Part shown: piece by piece, positions 7,614-20,000 of the stretch | Position numbering within the stretch: position 1 is the stretch's first letter | How the letters are laid out: each line of letters opens with the position of its first letter | Program-made: the position numbers and the translations under genes | Source: a bacterium | GTDB taxonomy: Bacteria > Patescibacteriota > Minisyncoccia > UBA6257 > GWB1-50-10 | NCBI GenBank assembly: GCA_027310235.1 | Contig: DAIDBF010000049.1 | Location: 1-32,960 of the forward strand | DNA length: 32,960 nucleotides | Direction of reading: 5' to 3' | The notes under the pieces: model-generated | Told to the model about the DNA's origin: nothing | Databases searched by the model: none | The model's input: the letters and a program-made list of their open reading frames with translations, nothing else

Positions 7614-9251
7614 ATGCTTGCGGAAGATTTAAAAAACCTAATACAGGGGGATGTGATGTCCGATGAGAATACGCTCTCGGCATACAGCACCGACTACTCT
7701 ATCTTTAGGGTAACACCGAGCGTGGTAGTGTTCCCGAAGGATAAGGAAGACGTGGAGAAGCTCGTCCAATATGCGGCAGAGAAGAAAAAAAGCGGAGAGG
7801 CCATTTCCCTCACCGGCCGCTCGGCGGGAACGGACATGTCGGGCGGGCCCTTGAACGACTCCGTGATCGTCGAGTTCGCGAAGTATTTCAACCACATCCG
7901 CGAAATCGGGAGCGATTACGCCGTCGTCGAGCCGGGAGTGTACTTCCGTGATTTTGAAAAAGAACTTGATAAGAAAGGACTGCTCTATCCGTCTTATCCC
8001 GCATCCAAAGATCTGTGCGCGATGGGAGGAATTGTGAACAACAACTCGGGCGGCGAGAAGACCCTTGGGTATGGGAAGACGGAAGATTATGTGGAAGAAG
8101 TGACGGTCGTCCTCGCGGACGGAAAAGAACACGTTTTGAGGCCTCTCTCGGCGGACGAACTCTCTTCAAAACTCAAAGAGGAAAATTTCGAAGGCGACAT
8201 CTATCGGAAGCTTTTCAAACTTATTGAGGATAACTACGATGCAATTCAAAATGCGAAGCCGAAGGTTTCGAAAAATTCCGCGGGGTACTTCCTGTGGAAT
8301 GTGTGGGATAGAAAGACGTTCGACATTATAAAGCTCATCGTGGGTTCTCAAGGGACGCTCGGGCTTTTGACCGCCGCGAAACTCCGGCTTGTGAAGAAGA
8401 AGAAATACTCAGCGCTTGCGGTTATCTTTTCAAGAACCCTGGATCCCGTGCCAGATCTCGTGGATGATCTTCTCAAGTTCCACCCTGAAGGCATCGAGTC
8501 ATACGACGATAAGACACTCTCGCTCGCGATGAAGTTTCTCCCATCGCTCATAAAGCTTATGAAGGGAGGAGCGGTGAAATTGTTGTTCCAGTTTCTCCCG
8601 GAGCTTTTCGTAGTACTTCGCGGAGGGATGCCGCAGATGATATTGCTTGTGTCCTTCACCTCGGATGACAAGGAGGAACTTCATCGGGATATGGAAGAAG
8701 TACGTGCGACCGCGAAAAAGTATCCGGTGAGCGTGCGCATTATAAAAACCGAAGAAGGCGCACAAAAGTACTGGGTGATTCGTCGACAGAGTTTTGCGCT
8801 CTTGCACAGCCATGTGAAGGGAATGTATGCCGCGCCCTTCATCGATGATATTATTGTCGATCCGAAGTACATGCCGGAACTCCTGCCGCAAGTGGATATA
8901 ATTCTCGATAAGCACAAGGACAAGCTCATCTACACAATCGCGGGTCATCCCGGAAACGGTAACTTCCACATTATTCCGCTCGTGCGCCTGAATGACGAGG
9001 AAACGAGAAAAATAATTCCGCAGGTAACGGAGGAGGTATATAAACTTGTGTTCAAATACGGCGGCTCGATTACCGCGGAACACAACGACGGCCTCATCCG
9101 CACGCCGTATCTCGAGGAGATGTACGGCGAGAAGATCACCGAGCTTTTCGAAGGGGTGAAGAACATCTTCGATCCTATGGACATCTTCAATCCGCGGAAG
9201 AAAGTGGGAGGGACGACCGAGTATGCGGTGGAGCATATGCGAAGAAGTTGA
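7614..9251 (+). CDS. FAD-binding oxidoreductase (GlcD / D-lactate dehydrogenase-like, PCMH-type)
   Basis: The FAD_binding_4-type N-terminal domain is present (VVVFPKDKEDVEKLVQYA..., LTGRSAGTDMSGGPL, AMGGIVNNNSGGEKTLGYGKTEDYV). The C-terminus contains GGSITAEHNDGL. Confidence 0.85.
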   Translation: MLAEDLKNLIQGDVMSDENTLSAYSTDYSIFRVTPSVVVFPKDKEDVEKLVQYAAEKKKSGEAISLTGRSAGTDMSGGPLNDSVIVEFAKYFNHIREIGSDYAVVEPGVYFRDFEKELDKKGLLYPSYPASKDLCAMGGIVNNNSGGEKTLGYGKTEDYVEEVTVVLADGKEHVLRPLSADELSSKLKEENFEGDIYRKLFKLIEDNYDAIQNAKPKVSKNSAGYFLWNVWDRKTFDIIKLIVGSQGTLGLLTAAKLRLVKKKKYSALAVIFSRTLDPVPDLVDDLLKFHPEGIESYDDKTLSLAMKFLPSLIKLMKGGAVKLLFQFLPELFVVLRGGMPQMILLVSFTSDDKEELHRDMEEVRATAKKYPVSVRIIKTEEGAQKYWVIRRQSFALLHSHVKGMYAAPFIDDIIVDPKYMPELLPQVDIILDKHKDKLIYTIAGHPGNGNFHIIPLVRLNDEETRKIIPQVTEEVYKLVFKYGGSITAEHNDGLIRTPYLEEMYGEKITELFEGVKNIFDPMDIFNPRKKVGGTTEYAVEHMRRS

Positions 9252-12199: not shown

Positions 12200-12418
12200 G
12201 GGGAAGAACCTTTATCTCGGTGAAGCATCGTGGAGCGAAATAGATGTCTTCCCGAGCGAAGACGAAGGAACCAAAGAGGTTCTGCACTGTACGAATCCCG
12301 AATCTGCCGAAGGCAGAGAAGGTTGAGTTGCAGGACCCTTTAGGTTCCGAGGATGAGCGAGGAGGAGACATATTGAGCGGAACGTTTTGTTGGCCGAGAG
12401 GAAGGTTCTTCCCCGTGA
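12200..12418. repeat. 219-nt palindromic element
   Basis: cacggggaagaacc (12200-12213) pairs perfectly with ggttcttccccgtg (12405-12418), extended by tctcgg/ccgaga. An internal hairpin tctgcc-gaa-ggcaga lies near 12311-12325. Confidence 0.55.
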
Positions 12419-13800: not shown

Positions 13801-14700
13801 ATGATTAAAAACCTGGACATCATAAAAAATAAGAAGTACTTCCTCGGATTTTCGCTGATGCTCGTCATCGCGAGTTTCGTAGTGATTGCGGTGTTCGGTT
13901 TAAAATCGGGGATCGATCTCGAAGGGGGAACGCAGTGGCAGGTTACGGTCCAAAAAGCAGGCGTGAGCGAAGAGGAACTGCAGTCCGTGTTGCAACAGAC
14001 AAACAAGAATACCGAAGTGATCGTAAAAAAAGCGGATGACGGCAGTTTTCTTATCCGCACGCACACCATGAACAACGACGAGCACCAGACGAACGTGAAG
14101 GCGCTTGAGGCGGCGTTCGGAGGCGTGGATGAAAAAAGTTTCTCCTCGATTGGGCCCGCAATCGGTGCCGAACTGAAACGGAATGCAATATGGGCGATCG
14201 TGGCGGTGCTCTTCGGCATCTCGCTCTACATCGCGTGGGCGTTCAGGAAAGTTTCCGAGCCGGTGCGATCGTGGAAGTACGGAGTGGCTACGCTCATCTC
14301 GCTTCTTCATGATGTGAGTATTCCCACGGGCATACTTGCGATCTTGGGCGCGGTGAAGGGGATTGAAATCGATACGAATTTCATCGTGGCGCTCCTTGTG
14401 GTGATGGGATTCTCGGTACACGATACGATCGTCGTATTCGACCGCATCCGCGAGAACCTTATCCGTGAACGCGGGAAAAAGACCCCGCTTGGCGACATCA
14501 TCAACTACAGCGTGAGAGAAACGTTCGCCCGGTCGGTGAACACCTCTTTCACGCTCTTTCTCGTGCTTCTTGCACTTCTCCTATTTGGCCCCGCTTCCTT
14601 GTTCTATTTCGTTCTTACTATTCTCGTAGGCACCATATTCGGTACTTACTCATCAATCTTCGTGGCAAGCCCGCTTTTGTACCTCTGGCAGAGGAAATAA
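13801..14700 (+). CDS. secF: Protein translocase subunit SecF
   Basis: 299 aa, directly after secD. It has an N-terminal TM segment, GIDLEGGT, and a C-terminal multi-TM SecD/SecF core (HDTIVVFDRIREN). Confidence 0.9.
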   Translation: MIKNLDIIKNKKYFLGFSLMLVIASFVVIAVFGLKSGIDLEGGTQWQVTVQKAGVSEEELQSVLQQTNKNTEVIVKKADDGSFLIRTHTMNNDEHQTNVKALEAAFGGVDEKSFSSIGPAIGAELKRNAIWAIVAVLFGISLYIAWAFRKVSEPVRSWKYGVATLISLLHDVSIPTGILAILGAVKGIEIDTNFIVALLVVMGFSVHDTIVVFDRIRENLIRERGKKTPLGDIINYSVRETFARSVNTSFTLFLVLLALLLFGPASLFYFVLTILVGTIFGTYSSIFVASPLLYLWQRK

Positions 14701-14752
14701 GAGGTTATCCCGGAGTGTACTAAATACGGGTCTCCCCGGAGGGGTTGACCCC

Positions 14753-14868
14753 GTAGTGAAAACTCGATAATCATTTACTCAATAAGAACACTTTATAAGA
14801 CACTGCCCCTGAGGGAGTTGTAAGCGAAACCAAAACCAAAAGGTCGCATAAAATCGAGTTTCTACTAC
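14753..14868 (+). repeat. Inverted-repeat element copy 1 (conserved 16-nt termini, unique interior)
   Basis: gtagtgaaaactcgat (14753-14768) ... atcgagtttctactac (14853-14868) form 14 Watson-Crick pairs, one G-U and one mismatch. The element is flanked by an identical 12-mer ggggttgacccc at 14741-14752 and 14869-14880. Confidence 0.6.
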
Positions 14869-14891
14869 GGGGTTGACCCCATTTCCGAATT

Positions 14892-15935
14892 ATGCTAAAA
14901 TCTTTTTCAGATATGAAAGAGATAACAATACATGAATTTATAGACAACCTTCTGTCGGATTTTTCCCCGAAGCAGCGGCGGGTAGTCGTCGGGCGTTTTG
15001 GGCTGAAAAATGGCGAGGTGATGACGCTCCAAGCGATCGGTGATGAACTCAAGATCACGAGGGAACGGGTCCGCCAGATCGAGGAACAGGCGATAAAGAA
15101 GCTTCGCGATAAGATAAAAGTTTCCGCTGCGCATATCCTCGAAGTTGCGGAGAAGCACCTGAAGTTGGTCGGAGACGTTCGTCGCGATGATTTGTTTATC
15201 CAGGATCTCATCTTTGCGCTCGGCATCGATTCTTCCGTGAAATATCCGGGGGAAAAGCTGCGGTTCATCCTTTCCGTCGCCGGCGTCCCTTCATTCGCGA
15301 AGGAAGATGAAAAATATAATGCGTACTGGTACTCCGATGAAAAGGCGAAAACAAAATTCCTGGAATTTGTGAAAGAAGTGACGAACTTTTTGAAAACGGG
15401 GAAAAAGCAGGAAATGATCGACAAAAAATTATATCTCATGCACTGCAAAGATTTAATTTCCTGCCACTTGCTTTCAATACCCAAGCATTTCGGAGTGAAC
15501 GTATTCGGCGACTTCGGACTTGCGGTGTGGCCCGAGATTGCACCGAAGACCATTCGCGACAAAGTGTACCTCGTCTTGAAAAAGCACGAGAAACCCCTTC
15601 ACTTTGAAGATATCGCGAAGTACATCAACCGCTACGGCCTCGACAAAAAATCGGCGCACATACAGACGGTTCATAATGAACTTATCAAAGATAAGCGGTT
15701 CGTACTGGTGGGGCGCGGCGTGTATGCGCTCCGCGAGAACGGATTCGAGGCGGGCACGGTACGGGAAGTGATTGCGCGGCTTCTTTCGACGCATGGGCCT
15801 CTTCACTCGACCGAGGTAGTAAACCTGGTAAATCAACAGCGCTTTTTGAAGGAAAATACCATTCTCCTGAATCTCCAGAATCGGCGTCATTTTAAACGGC
15901 TTGACGACGGCCGTTACAAGATACGAGAAGCATAA
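14892..15935 (+). CDS. Sigma-70 region-4-like HTH protein with two C-terminal HARE-HTH/winged-helix-like domains
   Basis: The N-terminus RRVVVGRFGLKNGEVMTLQAIGDELKITRERVRQIEEQAIKKLR is a region 4.2 HTH. The C-terminal PLHFEDIAKYI...FVLVGRGVYALRE and GPLHSTEVVNLV...FKRLDDGRYKI resemble HARE-HTH. The start may instead be ATG 14913, because TTGACC-17-TAAAAT (14874-14901) overlaps the first ATG. Confidence 0.75.
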   Translation: MLKSFSDMKEITIHEFIDNLLSDFSPKQRRVVVGRFGLKNGEVMTLQAIGDELKITRERVRQIEEQAIKKLRDKIKVSAAHILEVAEKHLKLVGDVRRDDLFIQDLIFALGIDSSVKYPGEKLRFILSVAGVPSFAKEDEKYNAYWYSDEKAKTKFLEFVKEVTNFLKTGKKQEMIDKKLYLMHCKDLISCHLLSIPKHFGVNVFGDFGLAVWPEIAPKTIRDKVYLVLKKHEKPLHFEDIAKYINRYGLDKKSAHIQTVHNELIKDKRFVLVGRGVYALRENGFEAGTVREVIARLLSTHGPLHSTEVVNLVNQQRFLKENTILLNLQNRRHFKRLDDGRYKIREA

Positions 15936-15966
15936 CAAAAACCGCGGGACTGTCCCGCGGTTTTCC
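15936..15966 (+). terminator. Intrinsic (bidirectional-type) terminator
   Basis: aaaaaccgcggga-ctg-tcccgcggtttt is a perfect 9-bp GC-rich stem with a 3-nt loop, an A-tract upstream and a T-tract downstream. It begins directly after the TAA stop at 15933-15935. Confidence 0.8.
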
Positions 15967-18080: not shown

Positions 18081-19526
18081 ATGCCTCGCGAATCAAAACT
18101 GCAAATTATCAAATATGCTCCTCCGCCGCCGGAGCTGCCGATCTACGGGCAAGTTGACCCGAAGGACGTGTCGTTTATAGGGAGAACCAATTACGTCGCC
18201 GCGCTTGAGCGGAAGAATTTCATCTTTGGCATCAAACGCGTCGACAGAAGAAGGCACGCGTACATCATCGGGAAAAGCGGCGTCGGAAAATCGAAGCTCT
18301 TGGAACTTTTTACGCGCCAGGATATCGCCTATGGCCACGGACTTTGCCTTATCGATCCGCACGGCGAAACGATCGACGACATCCTTCCGTTTATCCCAAA
18401 GGAACGCATTGATGATGTGTGCATCATCGATCCTTCCGACATTAATTACCCCGTATCCTTCAACCCGCTTGCAAACATCGATCCCTCTTTCAAACATCAG
18501 CTTACCCAAGGTCTTATTGAAGTCATGGAAAAGCAGTTCGGTGCGAACTGGACGCCGCGGCTCGAGCACGTATTCCGCTTTACCTGTCTCGCGCTTCTCG
18601 ATTATCCGCATGCCACCATGCGCGGCATGATCTCGATGTTGACCGATAGAAACTACCGCCAAAAAGTAGTGGAATATATCGAGGACGACATGGTAAAACG
18701 CTTCTGGGCGATCGAGTTTGCCGACTGGTCGGAAAAGTTCGACACGGAGGCCATCATCCCGCTTGTAAACAAGCTCGGACAGTTCCTTTCGGATCCGATG
18801 CTTCGGAACATCTTCGGGCAGAAAGAAAACAAGGTAAAACTCGAAGAGTTGATGCAGGAGAAGAAGATCATTCTCATCAATCTTTCGAAGGGGAAGATCG
18901 GAGAAGAAAATTCAAGTTTCTTCGGTTCGATGTTCATCACGAAAATTAAGCAAGCCGGCATGGCGCGCGCCGCGCTTCCAACCTCCGAACGGCACGACTA
19001 CTACGTGTATGTGGACGAGTTCCAGAATCTCGTAACCGATACGTTTGAAAACCTTTTGTCCGAGGCGCGCAAGTACGGATTGTGTCTTACAGTCGCGCAT
19101 CAGTATGTGGGGCAACTCTTGCCGAAGGTAGAAGCCGCCGTTCTGGGAAATACCGGAACGATTATCATTTTCCGCGTAGGCGGCGAAGATGCCGTGAAAC
19201 TGAAACCGGAGATGGCGCCCATCTTCGATATTAAGGATATGATCAACCTCGGTATGGGTCAGATTTATATCAAGATGACGATTGATGGCGAGACGTACGA
19301 TCCATTTTCCGCAGAGACGCTGAAAGTGCTCCCGCCGACGCATCCCTCATATAAGGAAGAAATCGTCGCGCGATCGCGCGAGAAGTATTCAATCTCCGCG
19401 GATGCGGCAAAGCGGCTCATCGCGGAAGAGGAAGAAGGAATTTTCCGAAGTGCCCAGGAAAAGGCGGCGATCACTGGCAAACCGCAGGCGGCGGCCGGAA
19501 ACGATACTCCAGAACCACTCATATAG
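18081..19526 (+). CDS. Soluble VirD4/TraD/TraG (type IV coupling protein)-like P-loop ATPase, paralogue 1
   Basis: It has Walker A IIGKSGVGKS, Walker B YYVYVDEFQN, then LLSEARKYGLCLTVAHQYVGQL, matching the T4CP-type pattern DE..L....L.E.RK.G....HQ...QL. There is no N-terminal TM segment. Confidence 0.8.
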   Translation: MPRESKLQIIKYAPPPPELPIYGQVDPKDVSFIGRTNYVAALERKNFIFGIKRVDRRRHAYIIGKSGVGKSKLLELFTRQDIAYGHGLCLIDPHGETIDDILPFIPKERIDDVCIIDPSDINYPVSFNPLANIDPSFKHQLTQGLIEVMEKQFGANWTPRLEHVFRFTCLALLDYPHATMRGMISMLTDRNYRQKVVEYIEDDMVKRFWAIEFADWSEKFDTEAIIPLVNKLGQFLSDPMLRNIFGQKENKVKLEELMQEKKIILINLSKGKIGEENSSFFGSMFITKIKQAGMARAALPTSERHDYYVYVDEFQNLVTDTFENLLSEARKYGLCLTVAHQYVGQLLPKVEAAVLGNTGTIIIFRVGGEDAVKLKPEMAPIFDIKDMINLGMGQIYIKMTIDGETYDPFSAETLKVLPPTHPSYKEEIVARSREKYSISADAAKRLIAEEEEGIFRSAQEKAAITGKPQAAAGNDTPEPLI

Positions 19527-19542
19527 ATTTCTCCTAAACCCA

Positions 19543-19662
19543 GTAGTGAAAACTCGATTGTGTATTGCCCCTCTTTTCCTCGATTTATTTCATATCTCCA
19601 CAAAGGCGTAAAATAATTAAGAAGATTCAAGCATCAAAAACAAATTATCGAGTTTCTACTAC
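19543..19662 (+). repeat. Inverted-repeat element copy 2
   Basis: The 16-nt termini are identical to copy 1 (19543-19558 and 19647-19662). The stem is extended by ccca/tggg. The 88-nt interior is unrelated to that of copy 1. Confidence 0.6.
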
Positions 19663-19694
19663 TGGGAAAGGTCGCTAGTTTAAAAGTAAATTAT

Positions 19695-20000
19695 ATGGTT
19701 CTCATTTATACCACGTGTAAAAATGAAGAAGAGGGAAAGAAACTCGCAAAACTGATTATCGAGCATCATATGGCCTCGTGCGTGAACGTGTGGCCCATTC
19801 AGTCGGTCTATCGCTGGGAAGGGGAGATCAAGGAGGACCAGGAGGCCGGGGTTCTTGTAAAGACGCTCGAGTCGAAACTGCAGCCGATTGAAGATCTGAT
19901 CATGCAGAATCACGCGTATGTCACTCCTTTTATAGGGGCTGTCGATGTGCGTCGTATCAACCATGCCTACAAGGAGTGGATGTCGGAGGTGGTCCGGTAG
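19695..20000 (+). CDS. cutA: Divalent-cation tolerance protein CutA
   Basis: 101 aa with the typical CutA1 pattern: VLIYTTC.....A..LA..I.....ASCVN..P..S.Y.W.G.I......L..KT. Confidence 0.85.
   Translation: MVLIYTTCKNEEEGKKLAKLIIEHHMASCVNVWPIQSVYRWEGEIKEDQEAGVLVKTLESKLQPIEDLIMQNHAYVTPFIGAVDVRRINHAYKEWMSEVVR

Follow-up and report, generated by a model that had tools for sequence, protein, structure and literature searches.

This locus raises the question of what kind of sequence lies behind two units of roughly 120 nt that share their inverted ends but have unrelated interiors, one (copy 1) following secF and the other (copy 2) preceding cutA, in contig DAIDBF010000049.1 of the patescibacterial assembly GCA_027310235.1 (Minisyncoccia; UBA6257; GWB1-50-10). 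The window, by which we mean the whole stretch of 32,960 nt that was analyzed, is contig C20 of this genome (G000; 743 kb in 101 contigs, 95.6% complete), and 11 loci of the genome were compared with three genomes of the same genus (G001, G002, and G003) whose flanking sequences are about 80% identical. We consider it likely, and hold with good confidence, that the two units are non-autonomous miniature copies of a family of DNA elements with terminal inverted repeats (TIRs) residing in Patescibacteria of the Parcubacteria type, and that the complete form of the element, about 300 bp in length, encodes only a GIY-YIG nuclease of 85 to 96 amino acid residues.

As an original prediction made from the sequence of the window had reported, both copies begin with GTAGTGAAAACTCGAT (14753-14768 and 19543-19558) and end with its imperfect inverted partner ATCGAGTTTCTACTAC (14853-14868 and 19647-19662); allowing up to 3 mismatches, 4 terminus matches are found in the window where 0.47 are expected, and none of 100 shuffles reached 4. 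The inverted repeat is not confined to the 16 nt originally described, but extends over 20 nt to include the outer CCCC/GGGG of copy 1 and CCCA/TGGG of copy 2. The two interiors are indeed unrelated, with local alignment scores of 15 in the same and 11 in the reverse orientation, compared with a null mean of 14.5. The parts of the two copies, together with their target-site duplications (TSDs), are as follows:

14745..14748, + strand: left copy of the TSD TTGA of copy 1, present as a single GGGGTTGACCC(C) at the empty site in G001 and G003
14749..14768, + strand: TIR of copy 1, 20 nt, 'GA' end, CCCC GTAGTGAAAACTCGAT, with covarying outer pairs
14769..14852, + strand: AT-rich interior of copy 1, 84 nt, with subterminal AATCATTT ('A-type') and a AAAGGTCGC motif near the 3′ end
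14853..14872, + strand: TIR of copy 1, 20 nt, 'AG' end, ATCGAGTTTCTACTAC GGGG
14873..14876, + strand: right copy of the TSD TTGA of copy 1, identical with the first 4 nt of the -35 box
14873..14901, + strand: promoter-like native site of the downstream gene, TTGACC-17-TAAAAT with an upstream TG, 10 of 12 consensus matches
19536..19538, + strand: left copy of the 3-bp duplication AAA of copy 2; in the three congeners the element is absent and ...AAAGGTCG... occurs once
19539..19558, + strand: TIR of copy 2, 20 nt, GA end, CCCA GTAGTGAAAACTCGAT
19559..19646, + strand: interior of copy 2, 88 nt, with subterminal TGTGTATTGCCC ('B-type'), opposite in polarity to copy 1
19647..19666, + strand: TIR of copy 2, 20 nt, AG end, ATCGAGTTTCTACTAC TGGG
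19667..19669, + strand: right copy of the duplication AAA of copy 2, at the start of a conserved AAAGGTCGCTAG...TAAATTAT-ATG region upstream of cutA

Comparison with the congeners establishes that both window elements were inserted as DNA and duplicated their targets. An exact empty site is found in at least one of the three same-genus genomes at 11 loci, those of the two window copies among them; such sites lack the whole unit, interior included, and carry a single copy of the 3- to 4-bp word that is duplicated in G000, so that the search for empty sites in relatives suggested by the original prediction confirms the TSDs. Specifically, i) the empty allele of copy 1 in G001 and G003 is a single GGGG(G)TTGACCC(C), which is the -35 box of the downstream promoter; ii) copy 2 is absent from all three congeners, and its AAA target marks the 5′ edge of the conserved AAAGGTCGCTAG-N-TAAATTAT-ATG that precedes cutA; and iii) at another locus with a TTGA duplication, the empty allele of G003 reads GAGGGTTGACTTTT, without CCCC, from which it follows that the outer bases belong to the element. 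These alleles also dissect the 12-mer GGGGTTGACCCC which, as originally noted, lies on both sides of copy 1, and which had been read either as a TSD of the kind that marks miniature transposable elements with inverted repeats (MITEs) or as an extension of the stem. The duplication was rightly suspected, but amounts to TTGA (4 bp) and not to 12 bp: the target is GGGG|TTGA|CCCC, TTGA is duplicated, and the 12-mers are completed by the CCCC and GGGG ends of the element itself. The empty sites thus rule out both a 12-bp duplication and a stem extension. The further suggestion that the right 12-mer supplies the TTGACC -35 box of the next gene is borne out, in that the promoter-like TTGACC-17-TAAAAT is left intact by the duplication and is kept in the empty sites of G001 and G003.

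The two copies of the original prediction are part of a much larger set. A search of the 743-kb genome for pairs of these termini, which that prediction had proposed, found 65 terminus sites (0 for a reversed control pattern) and about 31 paired elements, 24 with interiors of 82 to 94 nt, 6 with interiors of 19 to 25 nt, and one that measures 298 nt as a whole; the family is therefore small, non-coding, and multi-copy in the manner of a MITE, with 30 copies of 51 to 126 nt. Degenerate relics are rare in G000 (3 solo or mutated sites, compared with 62 intact ones), and the congeners have almost no copies (G001 and G002 none, G003 one). Relative to genes, both orientations of the element occur; in 22 of 30 cases the AG side faces a co-directional gene, a count that depends on crude open reading frame (ORF) calls, as do all our gene orientation statistics, so that the directional bias of the target word described below is the firmer statistic. 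GC skew, taken as a proxy for the replication strand, is positive on the GA-to-AG strand in 19 of 31 elements, an excess that falls short of significance, with gene strand as a confounder. An intrinsic terminator could be ruled out, as the stem is not followed by a T-run.

Duplication statistics were compiled from 96 distinct insertion sites in this and other genomes. The duplication is an exact 4 bp at 57 of the 96 sites (expected by chance at about 1 in 256) and an exact 3 bp at 11, or 68 together. Read from GA to AG, the target consensus is T-W-K-R, with TATG (21 sites), TTGA (10), and CATG (4) predominating over the reverse complements CATA (4) and TCAA (3); the direction of the target word relative to GA-to-AG polarity is thus about 31:7, a ratio that is indicative only since copies within a lineage are not independent. 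The main targets are TATG at start codons and TTGA in -35 boxes, and insertions are tolerated in so compact a genome because duplication of the target leaves a complete start codon or -35 box beside the element. Two of the TTGA sites are occupied in other species, at the identical TTGA, by elements whose termini are different (CCCCGTTAGAGGC..., TCCCTCACATAA..., TCCCCCCATAAC...); that three sister families have hit the very same word points to true target preference, and not just to the survival of harmless insertions. Such sister-family elements, at TTGA sites occupied in G000, are located at G001:C40:~990-1090 and ~2790-2910, G002:C3:~12210-12320, and G002:C6:~8030-8080. The sister-family termini CCCCGTTAGAGGC, TCCCTCACATAATATGC, TCCCCCCATAAC, and CCCTTCATATAAC resemble inverted repeats found around other small GIY-YIG genes.

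When 31 distinct terminus pairs were aligned, 94.5% of the cells were paired, and 10 of the 20 pairs showed changes on both sides, a number that 0 of 500 shuffles attained. The outer four bases are complementary in nearly every copy (mostly CCCA/TGGG, and also CCCC/GGGG, CCCG/CGGG, TCCA/TGGA, and CCAG/CTGG), and the compensatory difference between the C:G of copy 1 and the A:T of copy 2, on which the original prediction had remarked, is a family-wide feature (alignment column 4-41 is GC in 14 pairs, AU in 12, and CG in 3). Covariation alone is no proof of a hairpin, since a single protein that reads both ends would lead one to expect it just as much. G.T occupies position 6 in 29 of the 31 pairs and A.C position 7 in 28, and retention of this tandem mismatch amid so much compensated change argues that the asymmetry is functional. 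The mismatch had earlier been taken to mean that the + strand is the RNA, the only strand on which a G-U pair would be tolerable; this argument fails because both strands have one G.T and one A.C (with the order swapped) and the hairpins are equally stable (-20.9 versus -20.7 and -13.5 versus -16.9 kcal/mol, strand against strand). The miniatures exist as two polarity isomers, one with subterminal AATTATTC beside the GA end and TGTGTATAGTTC beside the AG end, as in copy 1, and the other with the reverse arrangement, as in copy 2. In the small set of sites that can be classified, the first isomer is found at TTGA and the second at TATG, and the direction of the target relative to GA-to-AG is the same for both; since the isomers differ yet the target reads alike, we infer that insertion polarity is set by the mismatch and not by the interior.

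The termini are also conserved to an unusual degree. The exact 32 nt are common to metagenome-assembled genomes (MAGs) of Jorgensen-, Harrison-, and Brennerbacteria (relatives are also recorded publicly under the Parcubacteria group), and at two orthologous pairs of filled sites, where the flanks are 79% and 74% identical and the interiors only about 63% and 73%, the termini are identical at 32 of 32 positions in both, for which the probability at the divergence of the interiors is about 4e-7 and 4e-5, respectively. Termini that remain perfect while interiors drift must be either constrained or homogenized in place. One member of the family (L111, at G032:C1:43012-43043) has no interior at all: two abutting AG-type termini form a 32-nt palindrome, with TCAA duplicated on either side.

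The evidence for an autonomous element comes from the longer members of the family. The 298-nt copy in G000 (L061, C31:2210-2507) matches positions 1-33 of the Pfam GIY-YIG model on one strand and positions 29-74 on the other, so that both halves of the gene are present, the N-terminal one inverted. In G006, an element of 301 nt, CCCA-GTAGTGAAAACTCAAT ... ATTGAGTTTCTACTAC-TGGG, contains an intact ORF of 85 amino acid residues, of which residues 1-71 match PF01541 (E = 1.3e-18); its termini are near-exact matches to those of G000. Two metagenome contigs (L177 and L178) contain elements, one of 303 and one of 307 nt, with the exact termini of G000 and intact GIY-YIG ORFs of 87 (in L178) and 96 amino acid residues. 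The GIY, YIG, Arg, and Glu motifs are retained in the element-encoded proteins. The ORF is read from the GA end in G006, G106, G112, G086, G105, L177, and L178, and from the AG end in G100 and G009. Of the 5 genomes that have several exact-terminus miniatures, 4 also contain a full-length element of the same terminus family. No gene other than the GIY-YIG gene was ever found between these termini. More broadly, 76 of 96 genomes of the taxonomic family have small GIY-YIG genes, nearly all of them between inverted repeats 279 to 330 nt apart that belong to several terminus families; G000 has six further small GIY-YIG genes with other termini. In NCBIfam, the nuclease matched nothing but a model for group I intron endonucleases, and that weakly.

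Each of 11 full-length members examined (L043, L177, L178, L082-L086, and L186-L188) also contains an internal inverted repeat of 12 to 21 bp, in which the leader and start codon (..GCGATTATGTTCT) pair with a segment coding for EHN some 90 nt downstream (AGAACATAATCGC..). The non-coding arm of this repeat covaries (GTGATT/AATCAC, CAATT/AATTG, AAGATT/AATCTT). Such a repeat would mask the start codon of the nuclease in RNA, or make a subterminal hairpin in single-stranded DNA. In the rearranged L061 copy, the inversion lies exactly between the two arms.

The interiors of the miniatures are unlike one another and unlike the nuclease gene. Among 276 interior pairs in G000, the 99th percentile of the shuffle null was exceeded by 20 in the same orientation and 5 in the reverse, with a best score of about 20 matched bases; only one of 45 interiors exceeds the 99% null when compared with three full-length elements, and only 8 to 12 subterminal nt are common to the miniatures and the full-length element. 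The absence of similarity rules out interiors that are remnants of the nuclease gene, and because the likeness stops at about 12 subterminal nt, the miniatures are no simple deletion derivatives. Captured host DNA was rejected since interiors have no second match in the genome, and spacers directed against phages or plasmids were rejected since there is no match in phage or plasmid records, so that the search for interior matches which the original prediction had proposed came out negative in all three. Nor did any viral contig among those searched contain the long-form pattern of termini 75 to 105 nt apart. What is shared is a narrow length, 82 to 94 nt in the long form. In other genomes we find young bursts, in which the interiors at different loci are 94 to 95% identical, and copying and spreading with the interior carried along therefore does occur. 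The original prediction had envisaged that more copies might reveal a decayed common interior, and hence an ordinary degenerate MITE; the additional copies exist, but the decayed interior does not, and the termini are conserved far beyond neutral expectation.

Four observations identify the window units as miniature copies of a mobile element: i) they have TIRs; ii) they are flanked by TSDs, with matching empty sites; iii) they are small, non-coding, and multi-copy; and iv) a coding element with the same termini exists. The interiors, on the other hand, were not derived by deletion from that autonomous element. In the mechanism that we propose, the nuclease would recognize the 20-nt termini, probably folded together into a single-strand hairpin, in the manner of the Ssn nucleases with their hairpin repeats (see below), and would cut the junctions between element and flank; the tandem G.T/A.C mismatch would distinguish strands or ends and so give rise to insertion polarity; miniature copies would be mobilized in trans; and the interior would serve as a spacer, constrained in length but free in sequence, which evolves neutrally and may be co-opted locally as a promoter-like module or pilin leader. 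More tentatively, and as a possibility that we do not yet regard as probable, we suggest that the smallest self-contained DNA transposon known (about 300 bp) has the single-domain GIY-YIG protein of about 85 amino acid residues as its only protein, that this protein acts on a single-strand hairpin of the 20-nt ends, that the mismatch determines strand and polarity much as the extrahelical bases of attC sites do, that TWKR words are its targets, and that the ends of the miniatures are kept in place through continued use by the nuclease or the host.

Several considerations weigh against this interpretation. The G000 assembly (101 contigs, 95.6% complete) has 31 miniatures but no intact cognate nuclease; miniature interiors differ from the full-length element beyond about 12 subterminal nt; and the solved structure nearest to the nuclease by sequence is a UPF0213 protein (1zg2, E = 2e-6). 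No element was caught in the act of transposing, and no enzymatic activity has been ascribed to the protein. GIY-YIG enzymes act by hydrolysis and are not known to perform strand transfer, which leaves the joining step to be accounted for. Finally, a purely selfish element does not predict perfect terminus conservation in orthologous copies, which hints at a host-level role or a homogenizing process; candidate causes are continued use by the nuclease, a host-level role, and repeated replacement at hot spots.

The last point bears on an explanation that overlaps with our own, in which the elements arose by transposition but the host now keeps their hairpin termini for a function. We think this unlikely; candidate functions are sites for a hairpin-directed single-stranded DNA nuclease that modulates recombination or DNA uptake (as has been proposed for NTS and SsnA in Neisseria, with a published role in transformation; PMC11893778), and the processing or stability of intergenic transcripts. 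The 32 of 32 identity of termini at both orthologous pairs, the exact 32 nt retained across three groups of MAGs, the 3 degenerate as against 62 intact sites in G000, and the narrow range of interior lengths all accord with such retention. Yet congeners that are nearly devoid of copies imply that no conserved host function requires the elements; the sites are hot spots for several unrelated families, which fits parasitic insertion; the elements are indifferent to gene orientation; and the T-run of an intrinsic terminator is missing. It is improbable that the elements are REP (repetitive extragenic palindromic) or REPIN-like sequences, with a Y1 (HUH) transposase of the IS200/IS605-RAYT kind as their mover and the GIY-YIG gene as a mere passenger or homing endonuclease. 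Their architecture forms hairpins, their termini begin with GTAG, reportedly the tetranucleotide typical of REP sequences, and the genome has three matches to PF01797 (Y1_Tnp, IS200/IS605-type):

G000 C8:1210-1569
G000 C13:2020-2241
G000 C55:4961-5188

None of the three adjoins the termini studied here, however, on which ground we rejected an association with a Y1 transposase; these loci may go with other repeat families of G000. Moreover, IS200/IS605 elements and REPINs leave no target duplication, whereas exact duplications of 3 to 4 bp are found at 68 of our 96 sites, and only a GIY-YIG gene is ever found between these termini.

The original prediction had favored comparison with guide-type or cassette-type RNAs, that is, with a family of structured RNAs in which a fixed closing helix surrounds a variable guide or cassette. 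Unique, unrelated interiors within a conserved, covarying helix are what such a family would exhibit, and Rfam does give some encouragement: copy 1 with its flanking 12-mers (14730-14891) matches WsnRNA46 with 33.1 bits (E = 2.3e-5), although the gathering score is 65.3. Copy 2 has no such match, and a search of the window with Rfam 15 yielded 0 hits at the gathering score, and, at a permissive threshold, only WsnRNA46 (copy 1) and microRNA noise; the match is probably a generic long-stem similarity. WsnRNA46 is a family of long-hairpin sRNAs from Wolbachia, a genome in which Ssn-related hairpin repeats are reported to abound (PMC11893778). Against an RNA, the whole units, interior included, are missing from the empty sites and flanked by TSDs where present, in either orientation relative to genes; the covariation would be the same if one protein read the two ends; neither strand folds better than the other; the interiors have no match in genome, phage, or plasmid records; one copy is translated in frame within atpA; and the full-length relatives encode a protein. 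The RNA explanation is thus largely refuted, and we regard it as very improbable.

Returning to the nuclease-encoding element and its miniatures, the closest published system is that of the Ssn nucleases (cd10448) with their hairpin repeats (Chenal et al. 2025, PMC11893778). Ssn proteins are GIY-YIG proteins of about 94 amino acid residues that cut only single-stranded DNA beside their own hairpin repeat; the genes are flanked by target repeats in an arrangement that the authors call IS-like, but no target duplication, empty site, or mobility was shown, and Patescibacteria are not mentioned (PMC11893778). As judged from the published description, the Ssn/NTS/SRM system (SsnA of Neisseria meningitidis) and ours share a single-domain GIY-YIG protein of about 90 amino acid residues, directional repeats, tens to hundreds of short hairpin repeats of the protein's own type, and small or symbiont genomes; in both, the gene lies within repeat sequences in a layout that may be likened to an IS, although the repeats enclose it differently. 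The zero-interior palindrome of L111 is similar to the short, complete hairpins that are described as the repeats of Ssn systems. The two differ in that Ssn repeats are complete hairpins of 20 to 50 nt with the gene between two of them, whereas here the two arms of one split hairpin enclose the gene or a spacer of about 85 nt; and in that the role proposed for Ssn is control of transformation, whereas here we find insertions with 3- to 4-bp duplications targeted to start codons and -35 boxes. In the literature that we searched, no GIY-YIG elements having both inverted repeats and target duplications are described from these bacteria.

Other known systems share some of these features. Bacterial MITEs (Correia/CREE of Neisseria, ERIC, and RUP) are likewise short, non-coding, multi-copy, and intergenic, with TIRs and short TSDs, and are often co-transcribed with genes and sometimes supply promoters; known MITEs, however, derive from insertion sequences (IS) with DDE transposases and retain recognizable interior similarity, whereas here the full element encodes only a GIY-YIG protein, the interiors are unrelated, and the termini invariant. 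REP/BIME and REPIN-RAYT sequences, and IS200/IS605 elements with their 'peel and paste' mode, share hairpins, a GTAG start, a small nuclease-type protein acting on single-stranded hairpins, and directional insertion, but use a Y1 HUH transposase and make no TSD, while our elements have a TSD and no associated Y1 gene. The attC sites of integrons are imperfect inverted repeats with variable interiors of 57 to 141 nt, in which unpaired bases of the folded single strand decide strand choice; as attC sites are the ends of cassettes in an array and are acted upon by a tyrosine integrase, whereas our copies are dispersed and flanked by TSDs, with neither integrase nor array, the resemblance is one of principle only. 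Rickettsia palindromic elements are mobile palindromic repeats found in frame within essential genes, like the short atpA copy described below, but differ in sequence family and lineage, and most of our copies are intergenic.

The genes neighboring the two window copies are these:

13801..14700, + strand: secF, upstream of copy 1 (Pfam SecD_SecF_C, E = 8e-52)
14892..15935, + strand: gene for a Sigma70_r4 / HARE-HTH protein, downstream of copy 1 (Pfam search)
18081..19526, + strand: gene for a T4CP-like ATPase, upstream of copy 2 (Pfam TrwB_AAD_bind / TraG-D_C)
19695..20000, + strand: cutA, downstream of copy 2 (Pfam CutA1, E = 7e-30)

A strong bidirectional terminator-like hairpin of 12 to 13 bp, AAAACCGCGGGAC..GTCCCGCGGTTTT, follows the sigma-r4/HARE-HTH gene at 15937-15965. 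At 19667-19697 in the window, a AAAGGTCG(N) motif lies about 17 to 20 nt upstream of a TAnnTTAT-like box that abuts an ATG; the motif and box also occur in the flanks at G000 C53, C70, and C89. The motif ahead of cutA is conserved in the congeners and recurs in many element interiors, including that of copy 1 (14839-14847), and may serve leaderless genes of these bacteria as a -35-like promoter element.

Some copies have become part of coding sequences. A short copy at G000:C63:834-893 (L057:834-893) lies in frame within the gene for the alpha subunit of ATP synthase (atpA), where the 60-nt element and one 3-bp AAA together add 63 nt, or 21 codons, encoding PSSENSIGEHADRHRVSTTGK; the insertion lies between the N-terminal barrel and the nucleotide-binding domain, and is absent from all three same-genus genomes. 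Two genes for type IV pilin-like proteins with an N_methyl motif (G000:C1:270-387 and G000:C11:4860-4985; L001 and L003) begin inside an element, and their ORFs cross the AG terminus, which encodes ...RVSTTG just before the prepilin cleavage motif G|FT(L/I)(I/V)E; the element thus gives these genes a start codon and a leader of 27 to 28 amino acid residues.

In practical terms, these elements break MAG assemblies, generate spurious candidates for structured RNAs, insert peptides into essential genes such as atpA, and donate leaders or promoters, for example to pilin genes; tiny nucleases, each with a short programmable hairpin site, are also of biotechnological interest. If the GIY-YIG protein is itself the mover, the hairpin-specific single-stranded DNA nucleases of the Ssn type would be linked to an actual mobility mechanism, which the Ssn authors raised only as a possibility. 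The protein would then represent a new class of prokaryotic transposase, and the element the smallest autonomous transposable element, abundant in the compact genomes of Patescibacteria.

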